Below, piece after piece: positions 3,001 through 52,100 of a stretch of 64,000 nucleotides of DNA (position 1 is its first letter; the number at the start of each line of letters is the position of its first letter). Below the pieces are notes generated by a model. The model searched no databases and was not told the origin of the DNA. It saw only the letters and a list, made by a program, of their open reading frames with translations. Origin of the DNA: Ascidiella aspersa (Eukaryota); assembly GCA_963924565.1 (NCBI GenBank), contig OZ004615.1, forward strand, positions 7,564,001-7,628,000. The letters run 5' to 3'. Made by a program: the position numbers and the translations under genes.

Positions 3001-4162
3001 TTGCGAGGGAGTCGAGTACGAGTACCGGGTGGCCGCCGAGAACGTGGCCGGCATCGGTGCACCAAGCGCCCCGTCCGGCCCGGCCACCGCCGAGGACCCC
3101 AAGTACCCCCCGGGCCCGCCCGCGTTCCCCAAGGTAGTTGACATGACTAGGAGCAGCGTGGATTTGATCTGGGGCAAACCGGCTTACGACGGCGATAGTC
3201 CTATCACCGGCTACATCGTTGAGATGTCGAACCCGGAGAGCCCGGACAAGTTCGAGCGCGTTGCCACCACGCATATTCTGAAGCACACTGTTACAGCGCT
3301 GGGCGAAGGACGCGAGTACAAGTTCCGCGTAAAGGCAACCAACGCAGTTGGCGATTCGGAGGCGAGCGAGGTCCAGGGATCCGTGATTCCAAAGGACATT
3401 CTCGAGCCACCCGCCATCGACTTGGATGCCACCCTCACCAAGGCTTTGGTTATCAGGGCTGGAAACACAATCCGCCTTTACTGCACATTGAAAGGCAGGC
3501 CGGCGCCGCGAGTCAGCTGGGCCAAGCTGGACGGAGAGCTGTCGCTTAACAGAGTCGAAATCAAGACATCCGACTGGGACAGCTTGCTGCTCGTGCCCAA
3601 CTGCAACCGAGACGACACAGGCAAGTACATGATCACGCTTGAGAACACGAGCGGCGTCAAGTCAGCCACCGTGTCGGTGCGCGTCCAGGACACGCCAGGC
3701 GCACCAGGGCCCATTACCTTCAAGGAAGTCACCCTGGAAACGGCCGCACTGGCTTGGGAGATGCCCCTGAACGACGGCGGATCGCCAGTGACCAACTACG
3801 TGGTCGAAAAGCGCGAGTCAACGCGTAAGGCTTGGGCAACAGTCACCACCCAATGCTCCAGGACATCTTGGACCGTCAACAAGCTAGAAGCCGGCAAAAG
3901 CTACTTCTTCCGCGTGATGGCTGAGAACGAGTACGGCGTTGGCGTTCCGTACGAGACCCCGGAACCGGTCAAGGCCACTCAGGAGCCCGGCCCCGTCACG
4001 AAACTGGAAGTGGCCGAAACTACCAAGACGTCGGCCACCATTCAGTGGCAGAAGCCGACGCACGACGGAGGCAGCAGGCTTAGCGGCTACGTGGTCGAAA
4101 TCGCGCCCAAGGACACTGACGAATGGGAAACTGTGACCGAAGTGAAGCTGCTCAGTTACAAG
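2..4162 (+). CDS. TTN: Titin large exon (5' end outside window): super-repeat 1 and start of repeat 2
   Basis: Frame is open from base 2 ([16 protein letters not shown]...). Donor AAG|gtaagg at 4162/4163. Confidence 0.93.
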
Positions 4163-28100: not shown

Positions 28101-31100
28101 AGTGGACGGCTCCGGTTAACGACGGAGGCTCCAAGATCCTTGGCTACCACGTCGAGAAGAAGGACAGAAACTCGATCCTCTGGGTCAAGTGCAGCAAGAC
28201 GCTGTTGTCCAACACCGAGTACAAGGTTACAAATCTTCAAGACGGCCTTGAGTACGAGTTCCGCGTCTACGCTGAAAACACGGCCGGCTTTGGTAAGATG
28301 AGCAAAGCCTCGGAACATGCTGTGGCACGCGATTCTGTCGATCCTCCGCGAGATCTCGAGGTGGTCGGAGTCACCCGATCCTCCGTGCATCTTCAGTGGA
28401 AGAAACCAGAGTACGACGGCGGCGCCAAGATCACTGGATACGTAATCGAGCGAGTCGAACTGCCGCAAGGTCGCTGGCTCAAGTGCAATTTCAGCAACGT
28501 GTCGGTGACCAACTTCAACGTGGAAGGCCTGACCGAAGGCAACAAGTACGAGTTCCGGGTGTCGGCCAAGAACGCGGCCGGGGCAATGAGCGCTCCTGCC
28601 ATCATGATGTCGCCCGTGCTTGTCAAGGACGAGATGCAGCCGCCTGTTATTGACATGGACTCGCGCTACTGCGACGTCGTTGTCGTGCGCGCTGGCAAGA
28701 ACATCAAGCTGGAGGCTGGCATCCGAGGCAAGCCGACGCCCACTATGACGTGGAAAAAGGAAACCGATGACGTCAAGGCCTCGCCTCGCGTCACCATCCG
28801 CAACACCGACGTTTCCGCCTGCCTCGAGATCGCCGACGCGACCAGAGAGGACACTGCAACTTACTCGCTGACTGTTCAAAACTTTGCCGGTTCGAGGTCA
28901 CTCTCCATACAGGTCAAGGTTCTTGACAAGCCTGGGCCACCGAGTGGACCAATGAAGGTGACCGGAGTCACTGCTGAGAAGTGTACTCTTCAGTGGGAAT
29001 CGCCAAAGAGGGACGGCGGTGCACCGATCACCAACTACGTGGTCGAGAAGCGCGAAACCAGTCACCTTGCCTGGGTTCTCGTCAACCCTAATGTCGAAGG
29101 AACGACTTGCAAGGTGGGCAAACTGCTCGCCGACAACGAGTACGTTTTCCGAGTGCGCGCCGAGAACAAGTACGGAGTCGGTGAGGCGCTGGAATCGGCT
29201 GAAACCCTCGCCAAGAATCCATTCACAGTTCCCAACGCCCCAGCATCCGTCGAGATCACCTCGGTTACCAGGAGCACGGCAATGCTGACCTGGACGCGTC
29301 CGAGGTCCGATGGAGGGTCCGAGATCTCCGGCTACGCGATCGAGAAGAAGCAGCGCGGAGGACTGCGATGGATTCGCGCCAACAAGCAGAGCGTCATGAA
29401 CTTGCGATTCAAGGCTTGCGAGCTGAACGAGAACCAGGAATACGAGTTCCGCGTCTGCGCCGAAAACGCAGCCGGAGCTGGCGCCTGGAGCGAGGCAACT
29501 CCTTATGTGCTCACGGAGGACCCCAAGTATCCTCCGGAGGCGCCGCTCTCGTTGCGTGTGGACGACACCACCAAGTCCTCGGTCACTCTTTCGTGGATGC
29601 CGCCGACTTTCGACGGCGGAAGCGAAGTGATGGGATACGTGGTCGAAATGAGCAAGCTGAAGAAGCGCCGCACTGTTTCGCAGTCGTCCACCTCCACCAT
29701 CGCGACCACCATCACCACGATGACGATGGATGGCGGAATCGAGGAGCAGTCGCTTCTGGACGAAGAACAAAGAGACATCCGCCGCGAGTGGCTCAAGGTT
29801 TCCGGCAAGAACATCGTCCGCGACACCGAGTACATCGTAACCGGGCTTCGCGACAACGCCGAGTACCTTTTCCGCATAGCCGCGGTCAGCAAGGTCGGAG
29901 CCGGCGATTTCGCAATGCTCCGAATGCCGGTCATTTGCGTGGATCGCCTCGAGATGCCAGAGCTCGTTATCGACGAGACAGTGCGCCGCAACGTCACAAT
30001 CAAAGCCGGCGCCATGTTGCGCCTTAACCTTGGATTCCGCGGCCGGCCAACGCCAACTATTACGTGGTCCAAGGCCGACACTCTGGCCGAAACGCTCAAG
30101 AAGAGAGTGAACGTGGACACGACGCAGTACACAACATCGCTTGTGATCAACGACGCCGATCGCTACGACGCCGGCCGTTACATGGTCACCGTCGAGAACT
30201 GCGAGGGATCAAGGGACTTTGCATACACCGTGAAGGTGCTGGACACGCCCGGGCCAGTGCTCGACCTCGACGTGGCCGAAGTGACGCGCGACTCGGCCTC
30301 TCTTAAGTGGGCGACGCCGGACAACGACGGCAGCGCCGTGATCACCAACTACGTGGTGCAGAAGCGCGAAGCGTCGCGTAAAGCCTGGGCCACAGTGTCC
30401 GCCGACTGCACCAGGAACTCCTGCAAGGTCAGCGGCCTCAACGAAGGCGATTCTTACATGTTCCGCGTGATGGCCGAGAACGCAAACGGCCTCGGCAAGC
30501 CTTGCGAGACCAAAGAGTCGACAAAGATTTCGATGCGTCCGTCCGCGCCCGGAAAGCTCCAGGTGGCTGACGTCACCAAGTCAACGATAACCTTGGCTTG
30601 GAGCAAACCCGAGCAAAACGGCGGCAGCGAGATTACAGGCTACGAGATCGACATGGTCTTGTCGGGATTCGACAACTGGCAAAAGTGTACGGCCGTCAAC
30701 GCGCTCACTGTATTGGTCAAGGGACTGGAAGAAGGACGCCAGTATCTCTTCCGCGTAAAAGCCAAGAATGACAAGGGTCTTAGTGAAGCGTCGGTTTTGG
30801 CAAGTCCGGTAATGATCCAGGACATCGTCGAAGCTCCCGAGCTCAACCTCCGCGATCTTCCTGTGGGCGGCATCCACGGCAAGGCTGGAACGACTATCAG
30901 CTTTGCGATCCCAGTAAGCGGCAAACCGCGGCCTGAGATCAAGTGGACCAAGAACGGCGAGACGCTGAAGCAGACCACTCGTGTTTCGACCGTCAGCACC
31001 CCGATCGATACTTCCATCACGATGAAGACCTGCAAGTTGGAAGACTCGGGAAGATACGAGATCACGGCCACAAACGCGTCCGGCTCAAAGACCGGCGTCG

Positions 31101-34100
31101 TACAGGTCAACATCCTCGACAAGCCGGGCAAGATCAACGACTTGAAGTTGCAGGGCGTTACTGAGAACTCTGTGAGCCTTGAGTGGCAACCACCGACGGA
31201 AGACGGCGGCTGCCAGATCAGCAATTACGCGGTGCAGATGCGTGACGTCGAGTCCGAAACCTGGGTCGACTGCTCAGCCACCGCTGTGCGCCCGCGCATC
31301 AAGGTCACCAAGCTGGTGCTAGGCAAGGAATACCAGTTCCGCGTCGCCGCTGAAAACCGCTTCGGATGCGGGGCCTACGTTGCCTCTGAGAAGGTAACTG
31401 TCAAGTTCCCATTCGGTAAGCCTGGCCAACCCGGCGTGCCACGCGTCGCTTTGGTTGCATCCGACCACGTTGTCTTGCATTGGCACGAGCCTGTCCACGA
31501 TGGAGGCAGTCCAGTGCTGGCTTACCACGTCGAGGTCAAAGACCGCAACAGCATCATGTGGCGCAAGGTGAACCGCTCCGACGTGCACGACACAACATTC
31601 AGAGTGACCGGACTTCAGTCTGGCCTCACCTACGAGTTCCGCGCTTACGCCGAGAACGCGGCGGGCTGTGGTAAGCCGAGCCAGGCCTGCGACCCGGTTG
31701 TGGCACGCGACCAGATCTCACCGCCAACCTTGGTCGAGCCGGTCGGCGTTACACGCGTGTCGGTTGACCTTGTCTGGCGCAAGCCTGAGAACGACGGCGG
31801 CGCCAAGATCACCGGATATGTTGTCGAGCGGCGTGAGCTGCCCAACGGACGCTGGCTTAAGTGTAACTTCAGCAACCTGACCGACCTGCGCTACACCGTC
31901 ACCGGACTCACAGAGGACGCAAGCTACGAGTTCCAGGTCACCGCCAAGAACGCAGCCGGCTCGGTATCGCAGCCAAGTGAGCCGAGCGAGCGTGTTACTT
32001 GCAAGGACGCCTTCACACCGCCGCGCCTCGATTTGGACCCGAGCCTACGCGACACTGTCGTGGTCAAGGCCGGCGAGTCGACCACAATCTCAGCTGCCAT
32101 ATTCGGCAAACCGCAGCCGACTGTAACTTGGTCGCGCAACGGCGTCGAGCTCGAGCATTCGCCCAAGACCGAGATTGTCGTAAACGAAGCCAGCACTGCG
32201 ATTACGATTAAGGACGCCGGTCGTGATGACAGTGGCGAGTACGTGCTGCATCTGAAGAACAGCGCTGGAAGCCGATCGATCGCCGTCAACGTGAAGGTAC
32301 TAGACCGGCCAGGAAAGCCCGTTGGCCCGCTCGCTGTCACTGAAGTCACGTCTGAGAAGTGCAGGTTGACCTGGCGCCCGCCTGCCAACAATGGCGGTGC
32401 CCCGATCATGCACTACGTGGTCGAGAAGCGCGAGACGTCCAGACTGACCTGGACCCTGGTGGCCGGCGACGTCGAAGGAGTGACCATCAAGGTGACCAGG
32501 TTGCTCAAAGGAAACGAGTACCTGTTCCGCGTTATGGCAGTCAACAAGTACGGCAACGGCGTGCCGCTCGAGTCGGTACCCGTTCTTGCCAAGGACCCAT
32601 TCGGTAGCCCTAGTGCACCTGGCCAGCCGCAGATTTCCACAGTGATGCGTAACTCTGCTGTAGTGACATGGGTTCGCCCGAGCTCAGACGGCGGCAGCGA
32701 AATCACAGGTTACCACATCGAGCGCAAGGAGCGTAATTCGGTTCGCTGGACTCGCGCCGTGCGACGAGCTGTCAGCAGCCTTCATCACAAGGTCACCGGA
32801 CTGAACGAGGGATCCGAGTACGAGTTTAGAGTGGCTGCTGAAAACGCGGCAGGCGTCGGACCCTTCTCAGAGATCAGCAGTCCTGTGCTCTGCAAGGAGC
32901 CGGTCTACCCGCCTGGCCCAGTTGGAATACCAAAGGTTGTGGACACAACACGCAAGAGCATATCGCTCGGTTGGGCTCCGCCTTCGTTCGATGGAGGCGC
33001 AGACGTTACCGGTTATCAGATCGAGGTCTGCCCCAAGGACGCAGAAGCTGAAGACTGGGTGAAGTGCACGCCGGCGACCGGCATTAAGTCCACCGAGTAC
33101 ACAGTGGCCGATCTTCAGGCCAACAAAGAGTACAAGTTCCGCGTCGCCGCCATTAACGTGGTCGGCGTTGGCGAGGCAATGCAACTGCCGGTAGCTGTCG
33201 AGACTAGCGACAGGCTCGAGGCGCCCGAGATCTCGCCCGATGGTGACTTGAGAAAGAACCTGACAGTGAAGGCGGGAAATTCGATCCGCCTTTACGTTCC
33301 AATCAGAGGCAGACCGGTGCCTAGCGTACGCTGGAGCAAGGAGGGCTCGCCGACCATCGAGCGCGCTCAACTTGACACGTCCGAGTCTGGCACTATCCTG
33401 CTGATTCCGGAATGCAACCGCGTCGACTCCGGCAAGTACACTCTTACCCTGGACAACAGCTCTGGCTCAGTGTCCGCCAGCTGCACCGTGAAGGTGCTGG
33501 ACACGCCAGGACCGCCACAAAACCTCAGCGTTAAGGATGTGAGCAAGGACTACGCCACGATCAGCTGGAGCCCACCTTCGAATGACGGAGGCTCGCACGT
33601 CACCAACTACATCGTTGAGAAGAAGGAGCGCGGACGCAAGGCCTGGTCGACCATAACGACCGGCTGTCAGCGTACTCACCTGAAGACGAACCTAGCCGAA
33701 GGACAGAGCTACCTGTTCCGCGTCATTGCCGAGAACGAGAATGGCATCGGCGAGCCTGTCGAAACCACTACGGCTGTGAAGGCCACCGAGGTACCAGGCT
33801 CACCTGAGTTCTTGGAAGTGGTCGACGTTTCAAAGTCGTCGGTCACTCTTAAGTGGTGCAAGCCCGAGGAAGACGGCGGTTCGAAGATTCTCGGCTACAC
33901 GATTGAGTCGCTAGAACGCGACCAGAACAAATGGGTTAAGCGCGCCACGGTCAAGGAGCCGCAGGCCACCGTCAGCAACCTCAAGGAAGGCCAGGAATAC
34001 GCTTTCAGGGTCGTAGCCCTCAACGACACGGGAGCCTCTGATCCGCGGGAATGCTCGTCCCTTGTTATGGTGCGCGATACATTCGTGTCTCCGTCGCTGG

Positions 34101-37100
34101 ATCTCACGCAAATCCCGCACGGCGTCGCTCACGTTAAGGTTGGTGACAACCTCGACATCGCTGTTCCGGTGACTGGCAAGCCTCAGCCGCACATTAAGTG
34201 GACAAAGGACGGCGCCAAAGTGAAGATGTCGAAGCGCGTTGATGTCGAGAGCGAAGAAGCCGGCGTTGCGCGCCTCAAGATCAAAACTATTGTTCCTGAG
34301 GACGCGGGTGAATACGAACTAGTCGCTGAAAACCAGGGAGGCAAGCGATCTGCCAAGATCAAGGTCGTCGCTTTGGATAAACCTGGCCCGGTTGAGGATC
34401 TTCAGAACTCCGACGTCACCGAGTCGTCCGTTGTCCTGAGCTGGAAGCCACCAGTGTCCGATGGCGGATCTTCGATCAGCGGTTACGTCGTCGACATGCG
34501 TACGGCCGAAGAGGCAGAATGGAAGATGGTGTCTTCCGCCATTGTGCGCACCACCTTCAAATGCACCAAGTTGAACCTCGGAAAGGAGTACACGTTCCGC
34601 GTGCGCGCCATGAACCGATTCGGACTCGGACCGGCCGAGAGCACCGATCCTGTATTGATCCAGCTGCCGTACAAGGTTCCGGGACCGCCAGGCACTTGCA
34701 CAGTGTCACATGCTTCCAAGGAAGCGATGCTGGTCAACTGGCAGGAGCCGGTCAAGGATGGCGGCAGCGCCGTTATCGGCTACCATCTTGAGCTCAAGGA
34801 CAGGAACAGCATTCTGTGGAAGAAGACGAACCGCGCCATAATTCGCAGCACGCGCTTCCGCGCAGTCAACCTCCAGGAGGGACTCGAGTACGAGTTCCGA
34901 GTTTCGGCTGAGAACGCCGCCGGAATCGGCAAACCAAGTCGCCCGTCGGAGGGAGCCTTTGCTCGCGACCCGGTCGACATTCCGCGCGAAGTCGAGGTGG
35001 CTGACATCACGAGGTCGTCTTGTTTGGTGCGCTGGAAGAAGCCAGAGTACGATGGCGGACAGAAGATCGTCGGCTACATGGTCGAGAAGCGCGACCTTCC
35101 GACCGGACGCTGGACCAGGGCGAGCTTTAACATCATCCCAGACAGCGAGTTCCTCGTGACCGGGCTGAACGGTGGCGCCGAGTACGAGTTCCGCGTCCTG
35201 GCCAAGAACGCGGCCGGCATCTTCAGTGAACCGTCGGCCAGCACCGGCGCTGTGAAGTGTGAGGACGACTTCCGTCCTCCGAGGATCTCGTTGGACGCGC
35301 ATCTCATGGATGAGGTCCGCGTGTCCGCAGGATCCACTCTGCGTCTTCACGTCGGAATATCGGGCAAGCCCGATCCGGTGGTGATTTGGTCGGTAAACGG
35401 CAAGGAGATCCGCGAGGACTTCCGCCGCCTCTTCGACAACACGTTCGACCACAGCAGCGCCATCATTAAGGACTGCGCGCGCGGCGATTCCGGCACTTAC
35501 ACCGTGATGGCGAAGAACGCCTGCGGCGAGAAATCGGCCCAGATTAAGGTATTGGTGATGGACAAGCCCGGGCCGCCTCAGGGACCAGTCCGCTTCACGC
35601 GGGTCACAGACCAGCGCGTCACATGTTCATGGGACGCTCCTCAACAAGACGGCGGCTCCAAGATCACGCACTACGTTGTGTCTAAACGCGAGACCTCGCG
35701 TCTTGCCTGGTCCATCGTCACCGAAAACGAAGAGCTGGCAACGCACACCGTTCAGCGACTGATCAAGGGCAACGAATACCAGTTCCGCATTCAGGCAGTC
35801 AACAAGTTCGGCTTGGGTGAGCCGCTTGACTCGGAGCCTGTCCTAGCCAAGAATAGCTTCACAGAGCCGAGCGCCCCAGGCATGCCGGAGGTTTCCAGCG
35901 TGTTCAGCGACAGCTGTACCGTGACGTGGAAGCGCCCGGAGACGGACGGTGGAGCCGACATCGATAGCTACGTGCTGGAGAGACGCGAACGCAAGAGCTC
36001 CCGCTGGATAAAATGCAGCAAGAAGCCGATCCGAGATTTGCGCCTCAAGGTCGCAAACCTGACCGATGGAAACGAGTACGAGTTCCGCGTAGCAGCAGAG
36101 AACGCGGCAGGCATGGGCGCCTACAGTCCCGTGTCGCTGGCTGTGGTCATGCACGACCCGATTGACGTACCAGGACCCCCGGGAAGCCCAAAAGTCCGCG
36201 ATACGACCAAGACTTCGGTGCTGCTCGGATGGAGCCCACCGGCTTACGACGGCGGTAGCTCAGTGATTGGATACTTGCTCGAGATGAAGACTGGCGAGTA
36301 TGAAGAGCCAGAGCAGCAAGAGCAAGAGGGTGATGATGAGGCGGTGTCTTCCGTTACGCATCACGACGACGATGGATGGAACGTGGTTCAGACCAACGTG
36401 CTTCACACGAGGTACGAAGTGCCGAAGCTAGATTCGAGCACCGCCTACCAGTTCCGCGTCTCAGCCATTAACAAGGGAGGCGTGGGCGAGGCGGCGTTGC
36501 TGCACGGACACGTGAAGCCCGTTGACAAGCTCGAGGCTCCCGATTACGACCTGGACACCGATCTGCGCAAAACCCTCGTGGTCAAGGCCGGCTCCACCAT
36601 CAACGTCAGCATCCCGATCAAGGGCAAGCCGACGCCGAACGTGACCTGGAAGAAGAACGACGTCAACATCAGCATGAACCCGCGTGTGCACGTGGACAAC
36701 GTCGACAATAAGACCATAATGGTGATCCAGGATTGCTGCCGCGATGACACCGGAAAGTACGTCCTGGCTCTGGAGAATTCCAGCGGCGTCGCCAACACCT
36801 TCATTAGCGTTCGCGTCTTGGACACTCCAGGTGCTCCTGGGGCGATCCGCGTCAAGAAGGTGACGCAGGAATACGCCATCATCACTTGGGACGCACCGAT
36901 GGTCGACGGCGGCTCTGACGTGTTTAACTACTACGTAGACAAGCGCGAAACCACGCACCGCGCCTGGTCGTCGGTGTCGCGCGACTGCAACAAGCTGAGC
37001 TACAAGATCGAAGGCTTAAACAAGGGAAGCAGCTACTTCTTCCGCGTTATGGCAGAGAACGAGCGCGGAGTCGGTGTTCCGGCCGAGTCGGTGGCGGTCA

Positions 37101-40100
37101 CAGCCACCGAGGTACCGCCGCCTGTTAACGACCTTCGCGTCGACGACATTACAAACAGCTCCGTGTCGCTTGTCTGGGGCAAACCGGACAGTGATGGCGG
37201 AACTCCGATTTCGTCCTACCACGTTCAGCACCTGGTCAAGGGCGCTGAGGAGTGGGAAACCACCAAGACGAGGCACACCAAGCTGGTCGTTGACCAGCTG
37301 AAGAAGGACAGCAAATACGAGCTTCGTGTTGCCGCTGAAAACGAGGCTGGATTAGGCGACTGGACCACAATCGGCCCGATCTCGGTGCGCGAACAGCTGA
37401 TCGCCCCAGAGGCTGATTTCAGCTCAATCCCTGGCCGCACGATCAACATGCGCGAGGGTGGCAACCTCAGGCTCGACATCCCAATATACGGGAAGCCGAG
37501 TCCGTCGGTGCGTTGGAGCAAGGACCGCATCCCTCTCAAGCAGGGCGATCACGTCGCCTTCGAGAGGACCAAGGACACTGCCATGCTTATGATCCGCGAC
37601 GTTCAGAAGCAGGACGCCTCGCAGTACTTCTTGCATCTTGAGAGTGCGGGTGGACGCAAGGACGCTGCCTTCACGCTGAACGTGTACGGCAACCCTGGCA
37701 AGATCAAGGGAATGATCGAGTTCCCGGAGGTGAGCGCCGAGAGCGTCGTGCTCAAGTGGACGCCGCCGGAGGACAACGGAGGATCTGAGATCACCAACTA
37801 CATCGTCGAGAAGAAGGAGACAACCAGCGACTCATGGTCGTCGGTGAACGCAAACTGCAGCCGAACCACGGTCAAGGCAACGAAGCTTCGCCCCAACTCG
37901 GAATATATCTTCCGTGTAGCGGCCGAGAACAAGTACGGCATGGGCGAGTTCACTGAGTCTATGGAAGTGGTCGCCAAGTATCCCTTCCGTGTGCCCTCAG
38001 CGCCAGGCCAGCCCGAAGTGGTCGAGATGAGCGCAGACGCAATGACTGTTCTGTGGAAGGAATGCCATTCCGACGGCGGCTCGGAGATCATGGGCTATCA
38101 CATCGAGCGCAAGGAACGCAACGCGATCCTTTGGACCAAGCAAAACCAGTCAGCTCTGCGCAGCTGTGAGTACAAGGCGACGGGTCTGATCGAAGGCCTC
38201 GAGTACCAGTTCCGAGTCTACGCCGAGAATATGGCCGGCCTCAGCAAGGCAAGCGAGGCGAGCAAGCCGGAGCGAGCGCACAATGTAGTCAGCCCGCCGT
38301 CTTGTCCAGACTGGAGCGACATTACGCGCGATACTGTTACGCTGACATGGCAAGCTCCCAAGTCGGACGGCGGCAGCAAGATCATCGGCTACAACATCGA
38401 GAAGCGCTCGGGCGAGGACGGACGCTGGCTCAAGTGCAACTACACCAACGTGCAGGAGTGCGAGTTCACCGCCACCGCGCTTAACATGGGCGAGAAGTAC
38501 CAGTTCCGCGTGATCGCTCGCAACGCCACCGGCACGGTAAGCAAGCCGTCCATACCGAGCGCCGAAATCGTGTGCCGCGACGACTTCCAGCCGCCAAACA
38601 TCCAGTTGGACGCCGATCTTTACGACGGCGTGAGCATCCGCGCCGGAGTCACACTTCGCTTGAAGGCAATCATCACCGGCAAGCCCGCTCCTCGCGTCAC
38701 GTGGACGCAGAGCGGCAAGGAAGTGATGCCGAACGCTCAGGTCGACATCAGCCAGGTCAAAAACACGCACCAGCTCGTCATCAAGGACACGACGCGACTC
38801 AACAGCGGCGAATACGTCATTTCGGCCAGAAATCCGTGCGCCACCAAGACCATGGATATCAAGGTGACAATACTGGACAAGCCAGGACCACCCCAGGGCC
38901 CGGTAAAGTTCACCTCGCTGACCGCGGAGAAGGTCACGCTGTGGTGGGCCGCGCCCAAGGACACCGGCGGCGCCACGATCGAGAACTACGTGGTCGAGAA
39001 GCGCGAGACGACGCGACTTAACTGGGCGCTGGTCGCTGCCAGCTGCGGCTCAACCAACTTGACGGTGACGCGGCTACTCAAGAACCACGAATACCAGTTC
39101 CGCGTTTCGGCCAAGAACAAGTTCGGTGTCGGCACACCGCTTCTGTCCGACGCTGTGGTGGCTAAGGTATCCTACACGGTGCCAACGCCGCCTGGCCAGC
39201 CTCAATACTCCAGCTCGAGCCCTGATTCGATCACAGTTGCCTTCACGCGCCCATTGAGCGACGGCGGCAACGAGATCATCGGCTACAACGTGGAGCGTCG
39301 CGAGAAGAAGAGCATGCGCTGGGTGCTGGCCAACAAGAAGCCGGTCACCGAGCTGCGCTGTAAGGTAACCGGCCTTAACGAGGGCGGCGAGTACGAGTTC
39401 CGCGTCACCGCCGAGAACGCGGCCGGCCAGAGCAAGCCGAGCGAGACATCGTCGCTTATCGTTTGCCGCGAGCCGATCAGTCCACCGGCGGCTCCTGGAA
39501 TCGCGCGCGTCACTGATACGTCACGCAGTACGGTGGCCCTTATGTGGACGCCGCCCACCTACGACGGCGGCAGCATCGTCACCGGTTACGTGGTGGAAGC
39601 GCGTAAGGTCCTCCCTGAAGAGCAGCAAGCCGATGGGGACGACGACTGGATGCGAATGAACCCGGAAATGATCCGCTCGTGCGAATACGTGGTTCCCAAC
39701 CTGGAGCCTGGCGCAGAATACAACTTGCGAGTGCGCGCCTCTAACGCTGGAGGCCTTGGTGAGGCGACTTCGATTTCCGGCAAAGTGATGGCAACCGACA
39801 AACTTGAGGCACCCGACTTCCAGATCGACGCCGACTTCAAGTCGCACTATGTGGTACGAGCCGGCGCTGCTTTGCGCTTGTTTGTGCTTTACCACGGACG
39901 CCCGATCCCGAATGTCACCTGGTCGAAGCCCGACGTCGAACTTCAAGATCGCGCCGAGATTCAGACGACAGGCTACAGCAGCCTGTTGCTGATCAACTCG
40001 ACAACGCGCGAGGACTCTGGAAAGTACACGCTCTCGCTGGAGAACAGCACTGGAGAGAAGCAGCTCAACATGACTGTGAAGGTACTCGACTCGCCAGGAC

Positions 40101-43100
40101 CCGTCGGTCCGATCCTCTGCAAGGAGGTGACCAGGAACTCAGTGACCCTTGCCTGGGACTCGCCACTCATCGACGGCGGCGCCATGGTCAAGAACTACGT
40201 GGTCGAGAAGCGCGAAGTATCGCGTAGAAGCTGGCAAACGGTTGCGACCAAGTGCTCGCGCACCTCGTTCAAAGTGGGCAAGCTGCAGGACGGCACCACC
40301 TACATGTTCCGCGTGCTGCCCGAGAACGAGTACGGCATCGGAGTTCCGCGGGAAACCGAGTCGCCGATTACCGTCACCGAAGTGCCCGGAATCCCTGAGC
40401 GCGTCGACATCGATGAGGTGACCAAGCGATCGGTCACGCTGAGCTGGCGTCGGCCAGAGTTTGACGGCGGCAGCCGCATCACCGCCTACGTCATAGAGGC
40501 GGCCGAGAAGAGCGCGGCCAAGTTCTCTGAGTGCGCTCGCGTCAAGGGCTCAGTGTTCCGACACACTGTCGCCAACCTGAAGGAGGGATGCGAGTACGAG
40601 TTCCGAGTTCGGGCCAAGAACGACGCGGGACTGGGCGAGGCGCGCGACGCCTTTTCGTCGGTCATCACCAAAGACGAGCAGAGTAAGTTTGACTTTCCCA
40701 ACTCTATTAATTTTTCACCTCTTACTTCCAACATGATTTTTTTTAAAACACGCGTATTTTTTAGCTAACAAAGCTGTGTTTTATTTTCAGTCATGCCTGA
40801 AGCTGACCTGAAGGGAATCTACCACAACACTGTCACGGTGAAGGCTGGAGCTCCGATCAACATCCACGTGCCAATCGTCGGCAAACCTACGCCAGCGGTG
40901 ACATGGAAAGCGAATGGTCGACCTTTGAAAGGTAACTGTCCGCCCACTTTATTACACCCTATCAATTCTGTATCGATCAGTTCCTTCTATGAAAACACCT
41001 TACCTTATTTTCCGCGATTTCAACCACTTCTCTTGCTTGCAGAAGGTGGCCGTTTCGCCATGACTACAAAGGACGGAGCCACGTCGCTCTGCATCAATAA
41101 CTCGAAGAAGACGGACGCTGGACAATACCTTCTCCACCTGGAGAACAACGTTGGAGAGAAAAGCTACAAGCTCGAAGTGGTCGTGCTTGGTAAGTTAATA
41201 CTTCCCAAAGCTTTTTAAACGACCTTAACATCGCTTTAATTCTTCTCAAATTTTACAGCCACTGTTCAATACATGCTAAGAGTGAATTAAGCCCTGAAAT
41301 GTATAACATAACAATAGAATGTCCTGGCCGTTAGTTAATTAGACTCAATGGTTTCTTAACCTGCTTGCTCTTTTGCCCAGACATGCCTTGCGCGCCCACC
41401 GGACCGATCATCTTTAGTGACGTCACCGCCGACAGCATCACGATCTCTTGGGCGCCGCCAGCGGACACGGGCGGCAGCGAGATCACAAACTACGCGGTTG
41501 ATTACCGCGAGTTCGGTCGTGCCGCCTGGCTTCATGTTACCTCGTGCACAACGCGCACCTTCGCCAAAGTGGGCAAGCTACAGCGTGGCACCGAGTACCA
41601 GTTCCGCGTCATGGCCGAGAGCAAGTACGGCGTCGGGGAGCCGCTCGTGTCGGAGATCTGCAAAGCCGAGTACCAGTACAGTAAGTTGCCTTGGTCGTTG
41701 TGTGTTTTTTTTAGCTCTGCAAACCTAGAGCAAAAGGCTGGAACACAGTTTAATGGGTTTAATAGCCGTTACAACCCAACAAGGTGTAGCTTTAATTGAA
41801 ACTCTTTACGTTGTTAAAAATTGGTCTTAGTAAAAAACTTCTTCATTACATGCAAATTAGCAACCTAGTGTTGCATTTCCTTCAATAAATCTCATATTAC
41901 ACCTAAAACGAATTAATAAATCTCGTTTTTCCTTCAGCCGTGCCAAGGCAACCTGGAACGCCCGAGATCAGTTCCGTGTCACGTGACGCAGTCTCGTTCA
42001 GCTGGAACGAGCCGACGCACGACGGTGGAAGTCCCGTGTCGGGCTACTACGTCGAGAAGAAGGAGAAGAACTCGATCTTGTGGCAACGCGACAGCGACAA
42101 GCCGACGCCCAACCGCTCGTACACCTGCAAAGGTACACTTTCAATTTGTTTGGTAGACTTCTTATTACAAACACATATCTCTTCGTGTGTGTATAAACGA
42201 ACGAATTTATTCACCCGTCGATTACTGTAAAAACACAAAACTAAATCGCCGCCTTTTCGCCTTTTTAGGACTTCTGGAAGGACTCGAGTACCAGTTCCGC
42301 GTCATCGCCGAGAACCAGGCCGGAGTCAGCAAACCTGGAGAGCCAAGTCGATCTGTTGAAGTGATCAGCGCCGTTGGACCACCCACCGACCTACACGTGG
42401 CCGACATGTCGCGCCACAGCGTCTGCTTAGAGTGGAAGAAACCGCTGGCCGACGGCGGCAGCAAAATCGCATACTACTTCATCGAAAGGCGACACGTGCC
42501 CGATGGACGCTGGCTCAAGTGCAACTTTACCAACGTAAGCGAGTCCGCGTTTGAGGTCACTGGCCTCACGCCCAACGAAGCCTACGAGTTCAGGGTGAGC
42601 GCTCGCAACGCAATCGGCACTGTCGGCCGACCAAGTGAGGTGCTGTCCGCTGTATGCAAGCCAACTTACAAGCCGCCCGGCATTGACCTGGATAGTCGTC
42701 TCATGTCCGACGTGGTTCAAGTACGCGCCGGAACAACTCTGCGCCTGGATGCTGAAACCTCCGGCAAACCGACACCGAGCGTCTTCTGGTCAAAGGGCGA
42801 CGTTGATTTAGAGGACAACGAGCATGTCACCATCGTGGCGGCGCCCACGTCAACATGCCTCGTAATCAAGGACGTGGCGCGTGAAGACACTGCTAAGTAC
42901 ACGCTGCTGCTGCGCAACGAATGCGGCGAGAAGCGAGCCACGGTTAACGTGAAGGTGCTGGACAAACCGGCAGCGCCCAATGGCCCGGTCGTCTTCAGCC
43001 GCGTGAGTGCCGAGCGCTGTAATCTCTCCTGGGAGCGACCTTCGGAGGATGGCGGCGCCGATATCACGCACTACGTGGCCGACAAGCGCGAGACTTCGCG

Positions 43101-46100
43101 AATCAGCTGGATCACGGTTCACGAGCGCTTAGAACACAGCTCTTGCACGATTCCCAACCTGATACCGAACAACGAGTACGTCTTCCGCGTCGCCGCCGTC
43201 AACAAGTACGGCCAGGGCGCCGCGCTCGAGTCCGAGCCGCTGGTCGCCAAGAACCAGTTCACGACGCCCGACGCGCCCAGTCAGGTTGAGCTGGCCGCCA
43301 CCACGCGCGACTCCATCACCGTTACTTGGACGCGGCCGGCCAGCGATGGAGGCTCGTCCATTAAAAGCTACGTGATCGAGAAGCGCGAGAAGCAAGGACA
43401 ACGCTGGATCCGCTGCAACAAGCAGCAGGAGATCACTGACCTTCGCTTCCGCGTTACCGGCCTGCGCCACAAGTCATTGGTCGAGTTTAGGGTAGCAGCT
43501 GAGAACGCAGCCGGCCTCGGCCCGTTCAGCGAACCAAGCGCCTACGGTTGCGTACAGGACCCAGTCTTCGCGCCTGCGCCTCCAGCTAACCTGCGATTTG
43601 CTGATTCGACCCGAAGCAGCATCAGTGTCGTATGGAAAGCGCCGCTCTTCGACGGCGGCAACCCGGTTGACGGGTACGTCGTTGAAGCGACCGAGTGTGT
43701 ACCCGAGCAGGAAGACAACTGGCAGAGGATGCACAAGTCCAACTACATCCAGAGCACCGAGTTTACAGTCGTCGGACTGAAGCAGGGACGAGAGTACAAC
43801 ATCAGAGTCTGGGCCATCAATTCTATCGGTAGAAGTGAAGAGCCAGCCGTGCTGAAGGAGAAGGTAGCGGCCAAGGATATCGTCGAAGAGCCGATGATTG
43901 AGTTGGACGACACTTTCCGCAAGACTGTCAGCCTTCACGCCGGAAAGCCACTGCGCTTGTACGTGTTCGTAAAGGGTCGCCCGGCACCAGCCGTGACATG
44001 GCGCAAGACCCCGTACGGTGAGGACTTGAGCTCCAAGGCTTACATAGAAACGCACGAGGCCGCCAGTCGTCTGGAGATCGAAAAAACAGACCGCTACGAC
44101 GCGGGCAAGTACACGATCGCGCTGGAGAACTCGGCGGGCAGTAAGGAGGCCACCATCAACGTGCGCGTTTACGACACACCAGGACGCCCGGGCCCGATTA
44201 TGGTCCGCGAGGTCACACGCAGCTCGGTGTCCTTCGGATGGGAGGCACCTGAGATCGACGGCGGCAGCGCGATCCGCAGCTACGTGGTCGAGAAGCGTGA
44301 AGCGACGCGACGCACCTGGAGCACGGTGACCACCAAGTGCTCCAAGATGAGCTTCAAGGTGGCCGACCTGGTCGAGGGCGTGTCCTACTTCTTCCGCGTC
44401 CTTGCCGAGAACCAATACGGCATCGGCGAAGGCCGCGAAACCGAAACGGCAATCAAGATCTCCGAGCAGCCGTCGCCGCCAGCCTCCGTTGAGGCAACGG
44501 ACGTGACCGCCAGCAGTGTTACCCTTGCTTGGGAGCGGCCCGAACAGGACGGTGGCTCGCGCATCGACGGCTACGCAGTCGAGATGATGGAGAAGGGCAC
44601 CGACAAGTGGATGACCGTTGGCAAAACCAAGGATATGCGCTTTGTTGTGAAGGGCCTCAAGGACGGCCTCGACTACTACTTCCGCGTGCGCGCCAGAAAC
44701 GACAGCGGCCTCGGCGAGCCACGAGAAATGCTCTCGTCGGTCACCGTCAAAGAACAGCTCGCGGCCCCTTCCGTCGACATGAGCAGCCTGCCGCAAAAGA
44801 CCTTGAACGTAAAGGCGGGAGCACCAATTCAGCTGAACTTGCCGATCTCCGGACGCCCGGTGCCCACTGTTCAGTGGACAAAGGACAACCAGCCGATCAA
44901 GGAGGACCTCCATCGCACCACGATCGCGACCAGTGATGCTCTCGCCTCTTTGGAGATTAGAGAGTCGACGGTGGAGGATCGCGGCGATTACCGCCTCACC
45001 TTGACGAACAGCTCCGGTTCGGTGACACAACTTATTCGAGTTGTGATCATGGACGTGCCGCAGCCCCCTCAAGGCCCGATCGAGATCGGCGAGGTCACCG
45101 CAACGTCTGTTGCCATTCAGTGGAAACAGCCGCTCTACGACGGCGGCGCAACCCTGAGCAACTACGTGGTCGAGAAGCGCGAGACGCACCGGCCCAACTG
45201 GATCACCGTCAGTGCCACTGTGACGCGCACAACCATTAAGATCACGCGCCTCAACGAAGACTCGGAGTACACGTTCCGCGTCATGGCACAGAACCGCCTC
45301 GGCGTCAGCAAGCCGCTGCTTTCCGAGGACGTGGTGGTGAAGAGCCAGTTCGGCGTCCCTGGTCCGCCAGGAACCCCGCAGATCACGACGTGCAGCAAGG
45401 ACAGCATGACCGTCATCTGGAACGAGCCAGTCAACGACGGAGGCTCCGAGATCACAGGCTACATCGTCGAGAGGAAGGAGCCAAAGGCACCGCGCTGGAT
45501 CCGGGCGACTAGGACCCCTGTGACGCAGACGCGTTACGTCAGCGCTGGATTGATCGAAGGCGTCGAGTACGTCCACCGGATCATCGCTATCAACGCAAAG
45601 GGCGAAGGAAAGCCAAGCAAGGAAACCGATACCGCCATTTGCCAGGAACCCGTTGCGCCACCTAGCGCTCCGAAGAAGCCTCGCGTCGTCGACGTCACCA
45701 AAGCGACGCTTTCCGTTGCTTGGGACAAGCCGGAGTTCGAAGGCGGCTCAAAGGTGCTGGGTTACTTCATCGAGATGCGCAAGGAAGACAGCTGGTGGGA
45801 GAAGTGCAACACCACTCCCATTCGCATCACCGAGTACACGCTCAAAGGTCTTCCAGAGGGCGGCGAATACTACCTCCGGGTGGTTGCCATGAACGCAGGT
45901 GGATGCGGGCAGCCGACCGAGATCGAGAAGCCGGTCATAATCAAGGACATGAGCGGTCCTCCGGAGCTTACCGCATCCTTCGTAGACGAAGTGGTTGCGC
46001 GCACGGGAGGAGTCGTTCGTCTTATCGTGCCGTTCAAATGCAGGCCGCTGCCTCACGTCGAGTGGAGCAAGATCAGTGGCCATGAGGCAGACCTTAGCGT

Positions 46101-49100
46101 TCGCGCAATGATCGCACTGAACCCGGAAACCGCAGAGCTGGTGATGAAGGGCGTAGACAGGAGAGACGCCGGCGAGTACAGAGCCCTGATCGTCAACAAG
46201 TTGGGCGAAAAGGAGGCCATCATTCGCGTTAAGGTAATTGGTAAGCCGGACGCGCCAGAAGGCCCGATGCAGTTCGGCGATCTGGAAGCGACCTCGGTAA
46301 AGCTGGTTTGGAAGCCTGTACTTGACGACGGTGGCAGCGCGGTAACCAACTATGCCGTGGAGCGACGCGAGGTTGGCAAGACTGCCTGGTTCACGGTCGA
46401 CTCTAAGATCAGAGGCACCCAGTGCACTGTCAAGGGTCTCACCGAAGGCAAGGAGTACTACTTCAAGGTGTACGCCGAGAACGCGTTCGGCCTTGGCGAG
46501 CCACTGCAGAACGCCGAGCCCGTGGTGCCCAAGAACCCGCTGTTCGCGCCGCAGCCGCCGCAGGTGGTCGAGATCAACGAGGTGCGCAAAGACCGCGTAT
46601 TCCTCTCATGGCCACGAAGCCGCGACGACGGCGGCTCGCGCGTTACTGGATACTTCGTCGAGAGGCGCGAAGCAGAGTCGGAGCGGTGGGTGCGCGTCAA
46701 CAAGGTGCTCACCAAGAACCTGTCCTTCACCGTTCAGGGCCTTGTAGAGAACGCCGACTACCAGTTCCGCGTGCTTGCACTTAATGATGTTGGCGAAGGC
46801 GACGCGTCCGAGCCTACCGAGATCATCACCTGCAAAGATCCATTCGACAAGCCCTCGGCACCGGAGGACATCGAAGTTCACCACGTCACCAAGGACTCTA
46901 TCACCCTGGCCTGGAGCAAGCCGGAGTTCGACGGCGGCAAGGGCATCCAGGGATACGTGATTGAGCATCGCGAGTCTGGCATGACGCTGTGGAAGCAGAG
47001 TCACGAGGACACAATCCAGGACCGCATCTACCAGATCGGCGGACTCGACCAAGGCGCCGAGTACGAGTTCCGAGTCTACTCGGTAAACGAGCAAGGAAGA
47101 TCGCGGCCGAGGATGCTGGAGTCGCCAGTCGCCACCAAGAAGGCGGCCGGAGAGAGGCCAGAGATCGTCGAACCGCTTGACACGACCATAGCGGTTAGGG
47201 GAACCACGGCAACGCTCAGTTGCAAAGTATCTGGACGCCCACTGCCTGACATCACTTGGATCCGCTTCGGCAAAGAGCTGCGCAGCGGAAGAAAGTACAA
47301 AATGTCTTCGGAGGGCCAGGTCAACTCGCTGCACGTTATAGATGCGCGCGACGAAGACGAGGGCGGCTATCACATGGTGGCGAAGAACAACGTCGGAACA
47401 CTGGACGTCGAAGGCAAGCTGATCATCGAGGGAATACCGGAGCTGGACAACGACAACATGCGCTTCAAGGAGCGCGTTACTGTCAAGAACGGCCAGACCA
47501 TGCGTATTCACGTTCCGTACAAGGGCCGACCGGCGGCGCAGGCAATCTGGACCAAGGAGGGTCGTCGCTTTGAGAAGAGCGAACGCCACGAGCTGGAGAC
47601 CACCGACAGTTACACTCATCTGCTGGTCAAGAACGCCGATCGCGCCAAGGACGCCGGCAAGTACATGGTCAAGCTAGGCAACACGCACGGCCAGAACACC
47701 TACTCGATCATGGTGGACGTGCAAGACGCCCCGTCCAAGGTCCAGGAGATCCAGGTATCGGACGTGACCCTCAACAGCATGGTGCTCTCGTGGAAGGAGC
47801 CGCAAGACAACGGCGGCGCTCCTGTATCCAACTACATCATCGAGAAGCGCGACATCGAGGAGGATCAGAACAGGTGGACCCTGGTGACCTCCAACACCGC
47901 GCAGACCTCGTTCAAGGCTGAGCGCTTGCAGGAGAAGCACGCCTATGTCTTCCGCGTCTACGCCGAGAACTGCTTCGGCGTTTCGGCGCCGCAGGAGACC
48001 GACTGCCCGACCGCAGCCAAGCCGCCGCACGATGCACCGCATCAGCCCAGCCAGCCAAAGGCAACTGGTGTTTCCAAGGAGGGCTGCATGCTTAACTGGA
48101 AACAGCCAAAACAGGAAGGCGCCGGTCGCGTGTCCAATTACGTGGTACAGCGACGAGACAAGCGCCGTCCTAGGTGGATGCGAATCAACGCCGACACATT
48201 AACCCAGTCGGTGTACGAAGTGGTCGGCCTGGTCGAGGGCGTCGCCTACGAGTTCCGCGTCATCGCTGAGAACTCGGCCGGCGCCTCCGAGCCTTCCGAG
48301 GTTTCAGAGCAGGTCGTGCCGAAGGACGACATCCGAGTGAGCGCGCCTAAGTTCGTGGAGAGTATCCGCGACATGGTGGTGCGACCAAACCAGAACGTGA
48401 CCTTCGCTTGCAAGATCTCCGGACAACCGAAGCCGATCGTCAAGTGGTACAAGGGCGGACGCGAGATCTCAGGCTGTCCCAAGTACCAGATGCACGAGGG
48501 CAAGGGCAACCACTACTCGTTAGTGATATCGGACGTGACAAGCGCCGACGAGATGCCCTACACCGTTCGGGCCACCAACCAGGGCGGCTCAATCTCGACC
48601 ACTGTCCAGTTGGACGTGCAGTTGCCCGCGCAGGTCAATTTGCCCAAGTACATGATGTCCGAGGCCACGGTGTGCAAGGTTCACGAAGTGGTCAGCATCA
48701 AGGTGCCGATCCAAGGCAAACCGACGCCCGATGTGACCTGGACCAAGGCCGGAAAGGTGGTCAGCCAAGACGGACACCGACAGCTCATCACAACACCGTC
48801 GTTCACGTCGATGACCATCACCAACGCAAGCAGGTCCGATTCAGGATTTTACAACATAACGGTCAAGAACCGCTTCGGCAGCAACCAAGCCACAGTTGAG
48901 CTTCTAGTCGGCGATGTTCCATCTCGGCCGGAGCGCCTTGAAGTATCCGATGTTACGCGGGATTCAGTCGATCTGTCATGGAAGGAGCCTTCAGATGACG
49001 GCGGAAAGCCAATCTTGAAGTACATCATCGAGAGGTGCACCGCTTCCAGTGAACGCTGGATGAAGGTGTCTTCCTCCAGCACCGCGCACTACACTGTGTG

Positions 49101-52100
49101 CAACCTGTCGGGAAAGACAAGCTACCAGTTCCGCGTTCGCGCTGAGAACGAGTACGGACAAAGCAAGCCGTCGGAAGCGTCGCACTCCGTTACAACCAAG
49201 GAGGACCGACTGATGGCCGGCAACTACGACGACATGGTCGACGCCACCGAAAAGTTTGTTCCTTGCGACGCTGAGATCTGCAAGTCGAACGTTTTGGACA
49301 AATATCAGATCATGGAGGAATTGGGACGCGGAACGTTCGGAGTCGTGCACAGAGCAAGGGAGATCCTCACCGGGAAGACCTTTGCCGTGAAGATCTGTCG
49401 CTTCGCCGAAGAGGCTGACAAGGCTCCGGTTCATCGGGAGGTCGAGATCATGAGGACTCTCCAGCATCCGCGAGTCCTTCAGCTCCACGAAGTCTTTGAC
49501 GTCAAGGGAGAGACATCCCTGGTGGTGCAGTTCGTGTCCGGAGGCGACCTCCTTGAACGAGTTACTTCATCAGCCTTCGAACTGACGGAGAATATGTGCG
49601 TCTACCTGCTGAAGCAGGTTGTAGAGGCGCTGGCCTATGTCCATTCGCAGAACGTCGCCCATTTGGACCTGAAGCCCGAAAACCTGCTCTTTGTCACGCG
49701 CAAGAGCAAGAAGATCAAGCTGATCGACTTCGGAGTTTCGCGTCGCCTTAAGACAGGAGAAGGTAATTGTTCAACCTAACACTTGTAACATCAAATTAGG
49801 CTTATTTCCAATTTATTTTGTTAAAATGAAAGCCTTTCACGCAGTTTTTGTATGCATATATTGTAACATGCTGCTTTTGCTCAACAGGTCTCCGTATCGC
49901 GTTTGGAACACCTGAGTTCTGCGCGCCCGAGGTGGTGCAGAACGACACGGTGGGATGCCCGACCGACATGTGGTCCCTGGGCGTCCTGGCCTACATCTTG
50001 CTTACCGGAGTTTCGCCCTTCCACGGCGAGAACGATAGCGAAACGCTAAAGAACATCGCCGAGGCCGAGTGGACTTTCGACCGCGAGGAGTTTGCGCTGA
50101 TCTCAGAGGACGCGTTGGACTTCATCGACAGGTAAGAGATCCTACTGAAAATAAATACGACCCTGTAAAATAGATTTTAAAAATTCACAAAGAAATCGAT
50201 AGGAGTAAAACTCTAAATACAATGTGCCACCGTACACCCGACGCTGTAACTGAACTTATCAACTCTTTCAGACTGCTCGTGAAAGAGAAGAGCCAGCGCA
50301 TGACCGCCGACGACTGTCTCCAGCACCCATGGATGCGGACCCTGCATCCGGAGGTTGATGAGGACCTTATCGAGAGGCGCTCCTTGCTGATCCAGACCAC
50401 GCAGCACAGGAAGTTCTACCAGAACATCAAGAAGCAGGACCTCTCGACCGTGATCGTGTCCTTGGGAAGATACGCCGCTGGGGGAGCCATGCGCTCGCTC
50501 AAGGGCAAATCTGTGGCCAAGGTCAAGGTCCAGTCGGTGGACATGACGCCGCAGCTGATGCCCATGCACCACGTGTTCGTCAAAGAGGGAGACGATGCCA
50601 AGGTCGTTTGCAGAATCAAGGAAGCCGAACACACGGAAACAGTTTCATGGTAAGTTAACTATAGAATTGTTTAACCAGGCTTTACATGTGTGAAATGATT
50701 AAATTACTTCTCATTCGCATTAACTGAAGATAACACAAGCTCGTATCGAAACGTCTTAATAATCAAGATGACGTCGATCTACTCGAATTTTTTGGCTTTG
50801 CAATTCATTATCAAGCTTTTTTATGCATAGGTAACAGATAAAAATCGAAAATTTACAAATACCTCTATAAATAACACAAACTTGTGGCTTCAGGTACAAG
50901 GACAACATCAAGCTGGAAGAAGGCGACAAGTACGAATTCGCTTACGACCAGCACACTTGCGCCACCTCGCTCTACGTCAAGGGCGTGACGAGGTCGGACG
51001 ACGGCAGCTACAAGTGCAAGGTGGAGAACGCGTTCGGCATCAACTCGCAACAATGCGAGCTCTGCGTCGAGCTAAAGACAAGGTACGCGTTCGAGTTAAA
51101 TACGCTTTGGATAAACCATGTTTTTAAAATCCCATTGTGTTTGATTCAAGCATATAATCCTGAAAATTGAGGTGGAAAGGGTTCGAAAACAAACAATGGT
51201 ATTCGCGCTGATGTTCTGTAACCCTTTTTCCTTTCTCTTCGCAGAGAATGGACGCGCACGCGCCGCAGCATCTACATGCTCAAGCACAAGAAGCGCGGCA
51301 AGCGATCAGGAGCTGCCGACATCTCGCGAATCGTCAAGTCACCGCCCGAGTTTACACTTCCGCTCTACAACAGGACCGTTTACGTCGGCGAGTCGGCCAC
51401 TTTCACCATCACCGGTAAGCAGAGAAAACGAGATACGCGACAAAACTGGCTTCAAACTTATACTAATTTCACGAATGGAAAAATAACTTCGGTGTACAAA
51501 ACATATAGTACACCGAAAGCGATCGCTAACTTTCGGTGTGCTATTGAGTAAGCCGTAATCTTTGGTCAAAACGCGCGTTCAGAAGTACTATTTTAAAGTG
51601 GTTTAACACACATGTGTGTGTATCTTTCCTGCAAAACATATACTATTAAATGTAAAGTTTCACACTAATTGTCAATACACGCCGTTTAAATTCATAACGA
51701 AAATTTTGCTCCTCGCGCAGTCACCGTTCATCCGTCGCCGGACATCACGTGGTTCCACAACGGGCAGCGGGTGAAGAACGACGACGATCGCTACGTCGTC
51801 ACCAAGGAGAAGGGACTCTACACGCTTGAGATCAAAAAATGCGAGATCGACTTCGGAGGCGAAGTGACGGTCACCGCCAAGAACCCGTACGGCGAGGACG
51901 AGTGCAAGGCAAGCCTGGTGGTTCAGCCGCGTCCGGTCAAGGAGGATCTTAGTGTCCGGCCTATGTTCCGGAGGTTGCTGGCAAACCAGGAGGTGGACGA
52001 AGGCGAGAACGCGCGCTTCGACATCCGCGTCACCGGCTTCCCGAAACCTATCGTCGAATGGTGAGCAAAACAACTTATGTTTCAATTATGTAGTCGCTTA

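Follow-up and report, generated by a model that had tools for sequence, protein, structure and literature searches.

For decades it has been debated whether titin kinase ever phosphorylates a target, and the locus described here raises the question for a titin outside the vertebrates: is its kinase likely to be active, and what would this say about the kinase of the chordate ancestor? The window, i.e. the whole 64,000-nt stretch of genomic DNA that was analysed, had been read in an earlier note as carrying a vertebrate-type titin with a canonical kinase. Judging from its sequence, we consider it probable that the gene is a tunicate titin with the vertebrate A-band layout, whose kinase is likely active and predicted to be inhibited by its tail, the chordate ancestor having had a competent kinase that was changed separately in different chordate lineages. 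The genome contained a GH6 match above the Pfam cut-off beside the GT2 cellulose synthase motifs FDAD, TED and QRSRW, a combination that identifies the host as a tunicate; to our knowledge, the cellulose synthase-GH6 fusion occurs, among animals, in tunicates only.

Domain architecture of the titin gene

The domains were located with profiles of Ig and Fn3 whose source proteins lay outside the window (Table 1). The C-zone super-repeats had the order Ig-Fn-Fn-Ig-Fn-Fn-Fn-Ig-Fn-Fn-Fn, and their count of 11 was obtained after correcting merged domains that are split by exons. They were followed by a P-zone whose three best PDB matches all came from titin (2NZI, for instance, with E 5e-91), and the P-zone, the kinase and the M-line Ig domains appeared in the order of chordate titin/connectin. 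Moreover, six 7-domain D-zone repeats were found just upstream of the window (contig C9 of genome G000, loci L016-L020), and about 25 Ig matches in the 50 kb upstream of it. The vertebrate titin A-band is described as 6x7 + 11x11 super-repeats followed by the P-zone (PMC12981300), and the domain count of the window titin, 6x7 + 11x11 + P-zone, is exactly the vertebrate one. This agrees with the earlier note, and the gene is supported as a vertebrate-type titin orthologue. As cited in PMC12198301, a vertebrate-like A-band was described by Ohtsuka et al. (2011) in amphioxus connectin and by Hanashima et al. (2012) in Ciona connectin/titin; the window very likely holds the orthologue of the latter from a different tunicate.

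Table 1. Features of the titin gene in the window, with positions counted from the first nucleotide of the window
Feature	Position	Strand	Evidence or remark
Titin C-zone, many exons	167..47127	+	11 complete 11-domain super-repeats; Ig and Fn3 profiles
P-zone, Ig-Ig-Fn-Fn-Ig-Ig-Fn (A164-A170 equivalent)	47158..49191	+	Ig/Fn3 profiles; PDB
N-terminal linker (NL)	49192..49302	+	NYD anchor at 49222-49230
Protein kinase, three exons	49303..50545	+	
Kinase part in exon A	49303..49762	+	Gly loop, β3 A-V-K, αC Glu, catalytic loop
GRGTFG (Gly loop)	49324..49341	+	
AVK (β3)	49384..49392	+	
REVEIM	49435..49452	+	αC Glu
HLDLKPEN	49660..49683	+	
DFG	49726..49734	+	
Intron 1	49763..49887	+	125 nt, GT-AG; absent from X3 contig; L032 intron at identical position
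Kinase exon B	49888..50131	+	P+1 loop, αF to αH
GTPEFCAPE (P+1 loop)	49905..49931	+	Cys at 49920-49922
Intron 2	50132..50271	+	140 nt, GT-AG; absent from X3 contig; L032 intron at identical position
Kinase domain end (exon C start)	50272..50332	+	motif and tail alignments
C-terminal regulatory tail (CRD)	50333..50530	+	helix R1, position -2, R-7x-R, strand βR1; tail motif end at 50530
QHRKFY (helix R1)	50402..50419	+	
Leu at CRD position -2	50462..50464	+	
R-7x-R	50468..50494	+	
M-line Ig domains	50550 (approximate)..58259	+	7 detected, with unique inserts; Ig profiles

Active site, linker and tail of the kinase

The kinase reads without stops when its two introns are removed, and both exon A (E 3e-39) and exon B (E 2e-15) matched Pfam Pkinase. 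The introns had gone unmentioned in the earlier note, as had the weight of the G-T and of the catalytic-loop Lys. Four runs were aligned on positions 48900-50660, and a spliced contig was found in one of them (X3, library type unrecorded), which was 5.7 kb long and skipped both introns exactly. In a sample of about 6% of the raw RNA run X5, where depth was very low, four reads fell on the kinase region and none crossed a junction, and an earlier read mapping over 9.5 kb of the window gave no splice joints. A total of 13 differences were listed in other runs over the kinase region, seven of them coding, and six of these seven were synonymous (P about 0.0008 if neutral). Compared with the metagenome locus L032, pS was 0.88 and pN 0.15, and no dN/dS is given because such a pS is saturated.

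The canonical elements GxGxxG, small-x-K, αC Glu, HxDxKxxN, DFG and G-T...APE were all present, and every string quoted in the earlier note lay in one spliced, stop-free frame. The αC Glu was assigned to the first Glu of REVE, since it was identical in 12 of 12 compared rows and the second was variable. In PDB alignments, M34, R129, E147 and Y170 of human titin kinase correspond to Ala, Lys, Asp and Cys of the window kinase, and the human T-A to its G-T; the Y170 assignment is in 1TKI chain numbering, counted from the alignment. The human motifs given in the earlier note (M-A-K, HFDIRPEN, EFG and TAPEYYAPE) agreed with these alignments. The vertebrate titin kinases (1TKI, 4JNW, 6YGN and medaka TKb 9QJ2) thus differ from the window kinase in β3 (Met versus Ala), at the DFG (E-x-G), in the catalytic loop (Arg versus Lys) and in the P+1 loop (T-A versus G-T, Tyr170 versus Cys), and of the vertebrate pseudokinase signature neither the bulky θ-x-K nor the E-x-G was found. 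The human residue opposite this Cys is the second Tyr of the P+1 loop. The position of the Cys stands as the earlier note had given it, but the release from a Tyr170 block that the note had read into it does not follow, as a missing Tyr says little: the P+1 Tyr is mostly mammalian, with a frequency of 96.4% in mammals, and was missing from all fish TKb pseudokinases (PMC12862963).

Since all canonical catalytic residues are present, the window titin kinase is likely an active Ser/Thr kinase, and we rate its catalytic competence as somewhat more probable than the account as a whole. Twitchin kinase activity was reported to be abolished by A34M and by D147E singly, but not by A34V (PMC4042850). 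However, intact motifs are no guarantee of catalysis, as human titin kinase could not be reverted, E147D alone staying inactive and the M34A/R129K/E147D variants being insoluble (PMC4042850). Between the window, L032 and two further ascidian-type rows (P0001 and P0058), 93 of 153 columns were invariant, among them G44, G46, G49, V51, A64, K66, E82, H156, D158, K160, N163 and DFG. Such invariance and the purifying selection fit a scaffold too, and catalytic positions are structurally conserved anyway.

In a PDB comparison of exon C, the human titin entry 6YGN scored E 1e-21 and the medaka TKb entry 9QJ2 E 2e-10, compared with 0.09 for Aplysia twitchin 1KOB, so the tail is of the titin type, as the earlier note had held. 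On the other hand, the NYD linker, which had also been taken as a titin-type mark, is not diagnostic of titin, since C. elegans twitchin has NYD too, both in the PDB alignments and according to PMC12862963; both the linker YD motif and the tail R-7x-R are present in the window and common to twitchin. In medaka TKb, residues E43, S116 and R170 of the kinase bind the YD motif (PMC12862963), and PDB alignments placed all three partners in the window kinase. Overall, the window shares with vertebrate titin kinase its site next to the P-zone in a titin whose C-zone is 11x11, the NYD linker and a CRD tail with R-7x-R and strand βR1. It differs from it in helix R1, where [R/K]H[R/K]RYY is replaced by QHRKFY (RHRKFH in L032) and the central H-R alone is kept, and at CRD position -2. 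The residue at this position, two places before R-7x-R, is described as plugging the ATP pocket and co-varying with β3: it is small in pseudokinase TK with its β3 Met, and Leu or Ile in active relatives, where it pairs with the β3 Ala of active twitchin, TTN-1 and projectin kinases (PMC12862963). Both the window and L032 have Leu at this position rather than the small residue of the vertebrate signature, and pair it with β3 Ala, i.e. the active-type pairing. Furthermore, the second tail Arg, which in fish TKb replaces the P+1 Tyr on the catalytic Asp (PMC12862963), is present in the window. Twitchin kinases (C. elegans 1KOA/3UTO and Aplysia 1KOB), which are active and tail-inhibited, share with the window the canonical motifs, the YD linker, a large hydrophobic residue at position -2 and no P+1 Tyr, but differ in their tail sequence and in their host, which has Ig-Fn-Fn cores instead of chordate super-repeats.

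Related kinases and alternative explanations

Kinase domains from a chosen subset of 252 stored proteins were used for a first tree of 40 rows, and a second one of 22 rows included three MLCK-family composites from the same genome as the window. Neither contained a vertebrate kinase, and the stored fish and bird titin fragments carry no kinase domain. In the first tree, the window grouped with L032, P0001 and P0058 at 97/94, the group of P0007 joined them at 99/98, and the amphioxus row, a long branch, joined the tunicate rows weakly (80/84). In the second tree, the titin-type group was obtained at 100/98 and the amphioxus position was without support. In these trees, which hold no vertebrate kinase, the window kinase falls with the titin-type rows and not with MLCK or twitchin (99/98 and 100/98). 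The link of the window to vertebrates rests on the tail and the architecture, because the kinase core scores twitchin and human titin about equally (154 vs. 152 bits for exon A and 88 vs. 82 for exon B), as would be expected if the vertebrate kinase domain is the derived one.

Among the ascidian-type relatives, L032 was 73% identical to the window over 396 residues, shared its two introns and was canonical throughout, the sole change in its catalytic loop being Asp for Glu before the Asn. Another metagenome locus, L033, was nearly identical to L032, and 51 of the 53 metagenome loci were distant kinases that were left out. P0001 and P0058 were canonical up to intron 1, which is their end point, the P+1 loop and the tail lying beyond. 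These four ascidian-type rows were 67-78% identical, and the listed catalytic positions were canonical in all of them. A second tunicate-like group, consisting of P0007, P0202, P0209 and their cluster members, had Val in β3, Thr for Glu, Tyr for His in two of the three representatives, and Arg or Lys for the Gly of G-T; it shared with vertebrates short stretches near β3 and after DFG that the window does not have. Since it is in register with the window repeats and sister to the ascidian-type rows (99/98), this group is likely a second tunicate lineage. A single-sequence fold of P0007 reached a pLDDT of 30.6 and was set aside, and atlas searches returned generic kinase clusters only.

The amphioxus row, P0055, is a 'titin-like' protein of Branchiostoma lanceolatum with four 11-domain repeats, a P-zone, a kinase (residues about 5112-5370) and 10 Ig domains. 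In this one gene model of one species, the kinase had Thr for the β3 Lys, His for the catalytic Asp, Ser for the Asn, Arg for the catalytic-loop Lys and no G-T, and retained the Ala and the DFG. By motif, it would be dead, mostly through residues other than those altered in vertebrates, and it is apparently a previously unreported pseudokinase. The proposal of the earlier note that inactivation is specific to vertebrates therefore fails, P0055 being without the β3 Lys, the catalytic Asp and the Asn. Its companion, a competent kinase in the chordate ancestor, fared better: the hemichordate titin-like row P0023 and the insect twitchin P0056 were canonical, and together with the ascidian-type rows they make competence the parsimonious choice, so the chordate ancestor probably had a competent titin kinase and catalytic residues were probably lost independently in vertebrates and the lancelet. 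The catalytic-loop Arg is common to amphioxus and vertebrates, which could point to an earlier change. The lamprey titin kinase already has MAK and EFG, in a list without tunicates or amphioxus (PMC4042850 supplement), which likely places the vertebrate change later than the split from tunicates. Taking the pattern further, the chances appear evenly balanced that ascidian-type tunicates have the only fully intact, stretch-gated titin kinase among the sampled chordates, with a tail like the human one and a true substrate close to the M-band, catalysis having been lost at least twice and in different ways, on the vertebrate stem and in amphioxus, and eroding in the second tunicate lineage.

In 2014, titin-like kinases were proposed to be active in invertebrates and pseudokinases in vertebrates, with protostomes only on the invertebrate side (PMC4042850). 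The sequence set of PMC12862963 was pruned to vertebrates, and tunicates or amphioxus are not mentioned in its text or in two supplement files; the tree of PMC12198301 includes connectin kinases, that of amphioxus among them, and its five supplement files were without catalytic terms. Neither a statement on the catalytic state of a tunicate or amphioxus titin kinase nor the chordate pattern was found in the literature searched, and Hanashima 2012 and Ohtsuka 2011 may bear on this point.

The near-equal core scores raise the question of whether the gene is a twitchin/projectin-like paralogue, for which a canonical kinase would simply be expected: twitchin was the top PDB match for exon A and outranked titin for exon B, and the end Ig-Ig-Fn-Fn-Ig-Ig-Fn-kinase is common to twitchin-like proteins. 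This reading is largely refuted by the exact super-repeat count, and we give it almost no credence. The 11-domain repeats were absent from the named twitchin-like rows and numbered four in the amphioxus titin, the tail matches titin only, and a search of 308.6 Mb in 75 contigs found no second titin-grade kinase, and hence no other titin-grade locus with a degenerate kinase, the two matches at E<=1e-20 including one other that was 33% identical. A secondary regain, in which the ancestor was compromised and the ascidian site was restored from a paralogue of the MLCK family, whether by gene conversion or by replacement of the domain, would account for the deviations of amphioxus, vertebrates and the P0007 group alike, for the Arg common to amphioxus and vertebrates and for the short stretches shared by the P0007 group and vertebrates; MLCK-family genes do lie on titin's own contig. 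Nevertheless, a comparison made segment by segment gave no signal of gene conversion from these paralogues, as no kinase segment was unusually near the four of them (rough composites of tblastn pieces), with per-segment identities of 27-61% for the window kinase and 27-60% for the hemichordate titin-like row. The tree also keeps the window with titin-type rows (100/98), and the amphioxus (K, D, N) and vertebrate (A, DFG) deviations lie at different residues, which makes regain improbable.

A greater part of the doubt belongs to a kinase that looks canonical but is silent, because of an over-tight tail or altered docking, and serves as a mechanosensing scaffold like vertebrate TK. The tail, the linker and its partner residues are titin-like, loss was tolerated in other chordate lineages, tail-less TK is hard to produce, and a DFG-type Asp occurs in 20 of the 452 TKs from fish and mammals, each of them fish isoform a (PMC12862963). 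Against such a scaffold, the listed catalytic positions remained canonical together in four of four ascidian-type rows only 67-78% identical, motifs drift visibly where function was lost, and the Leu at position -2 fits the active-type pairing. Silence is therefore judged unlikely, though less so than the two readings above, and a competent, tail-inhibited kinase is preferred.

Proposed regulation and further observations of the locus

If the kinase is competent, a mechanism can be proposed by analogy with titin and twitchin kinases of known structure. The NYD linker would clamp the hinge between the lobes, helix R2 would plug the ATP pocket with its Leu packed on the β3 Ala, and the catalytic Asp would be bound by the second Arg of R-7x-R, no Tyr being used. 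Being of the non-RD type (HLD), the kinase would not depend on phosphorylation of its activation loop. The two flanking tails would thus keep the kinase off until sarcomere tension pulled them away and released it, an opening by tension having been proposed for titin and twitchin kinases (PMC12862963). The best guess for a substrate, taken from twitchin, would be a thick-filament target near the M-band or the kinase itself. The kinase activity of twitchin acts as a brake on muscle activity in C. elegans (PMC5469603), and a similar role for the window kinase would be a guess. In the history proposed, a kinase competent in the chordate ancestor would have undergone A>M, K>R, D>E and GT>TA in vertebrates after the tunicate split, amphioxus would have lost K, D and N separately, and the second tunicate-like group would have partly drifted.

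An orthologue that naturally combines an intact active site with a tail like that of human titin would offer a scaffold for testing the stretch-activation model and for adding the vertebrate substitutions singly. The ancestral substrate could be sought as well, genetic tools being established for tunicates. The vertebrate change likely falls on the stem that leads from the tunicate split to the lamprey, and loss was probably repeated; if true, repeated loss within chordates would replace the vertebrate-versus-invertebrate dichotomy.

Other observations concerned the C-zone and its surroundings. Tunicate-type C-zone fragments mapped in register to the window repeats (167-47127), while those of fish, bird and amphioxus (P0053, P0061, P0081, P0084, P0141, P0052 and P0055) were out of register, for which reason a tree of C-zone repeats matched by position and including vertebrates was abandoned; saturation or lineage-specific homogenisation may have acted despite the conserved count of 11. 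Within an intron of C-zone repeat 2, an open stretch of 768 nt (9055-9822, forward strand) is flanked by AG and GT in the phase of the neighbouring exons and splices in frame without stops. It is rich in S/T/K/R, has three 36-nt repeats and an in-frame ATG at 9105, gave no Pfam match, and is a candidate for a cassette exon or, in a short A-band isoform, for an alternative first exon. High-copy repeats appeared in M-line introns at about 50700-50820 and 53100-53220, with bin depths in run X1 of 91,218 and 6,493 compared to about 127.

Among the stored proteins, P0074, P0075 and P0076 are twitchin-like giants with degenerate kinase motifs, the first from the acanthocephalan Pomphorhynchus laevis, and catalysis may have been lost in the twitchin-like family more often than reported. 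Finally, three more MLCK-family kinase domains were found on contig C9, 130-290 kb from titin (L021-L027, at about 7.75-7.77 Mb and 7.90 Mb). Two of them look canonical, and the third, which has an altered DFG and sits after Ig domains, may belong to an obscurin/SPEG-like gene as its second kinase.
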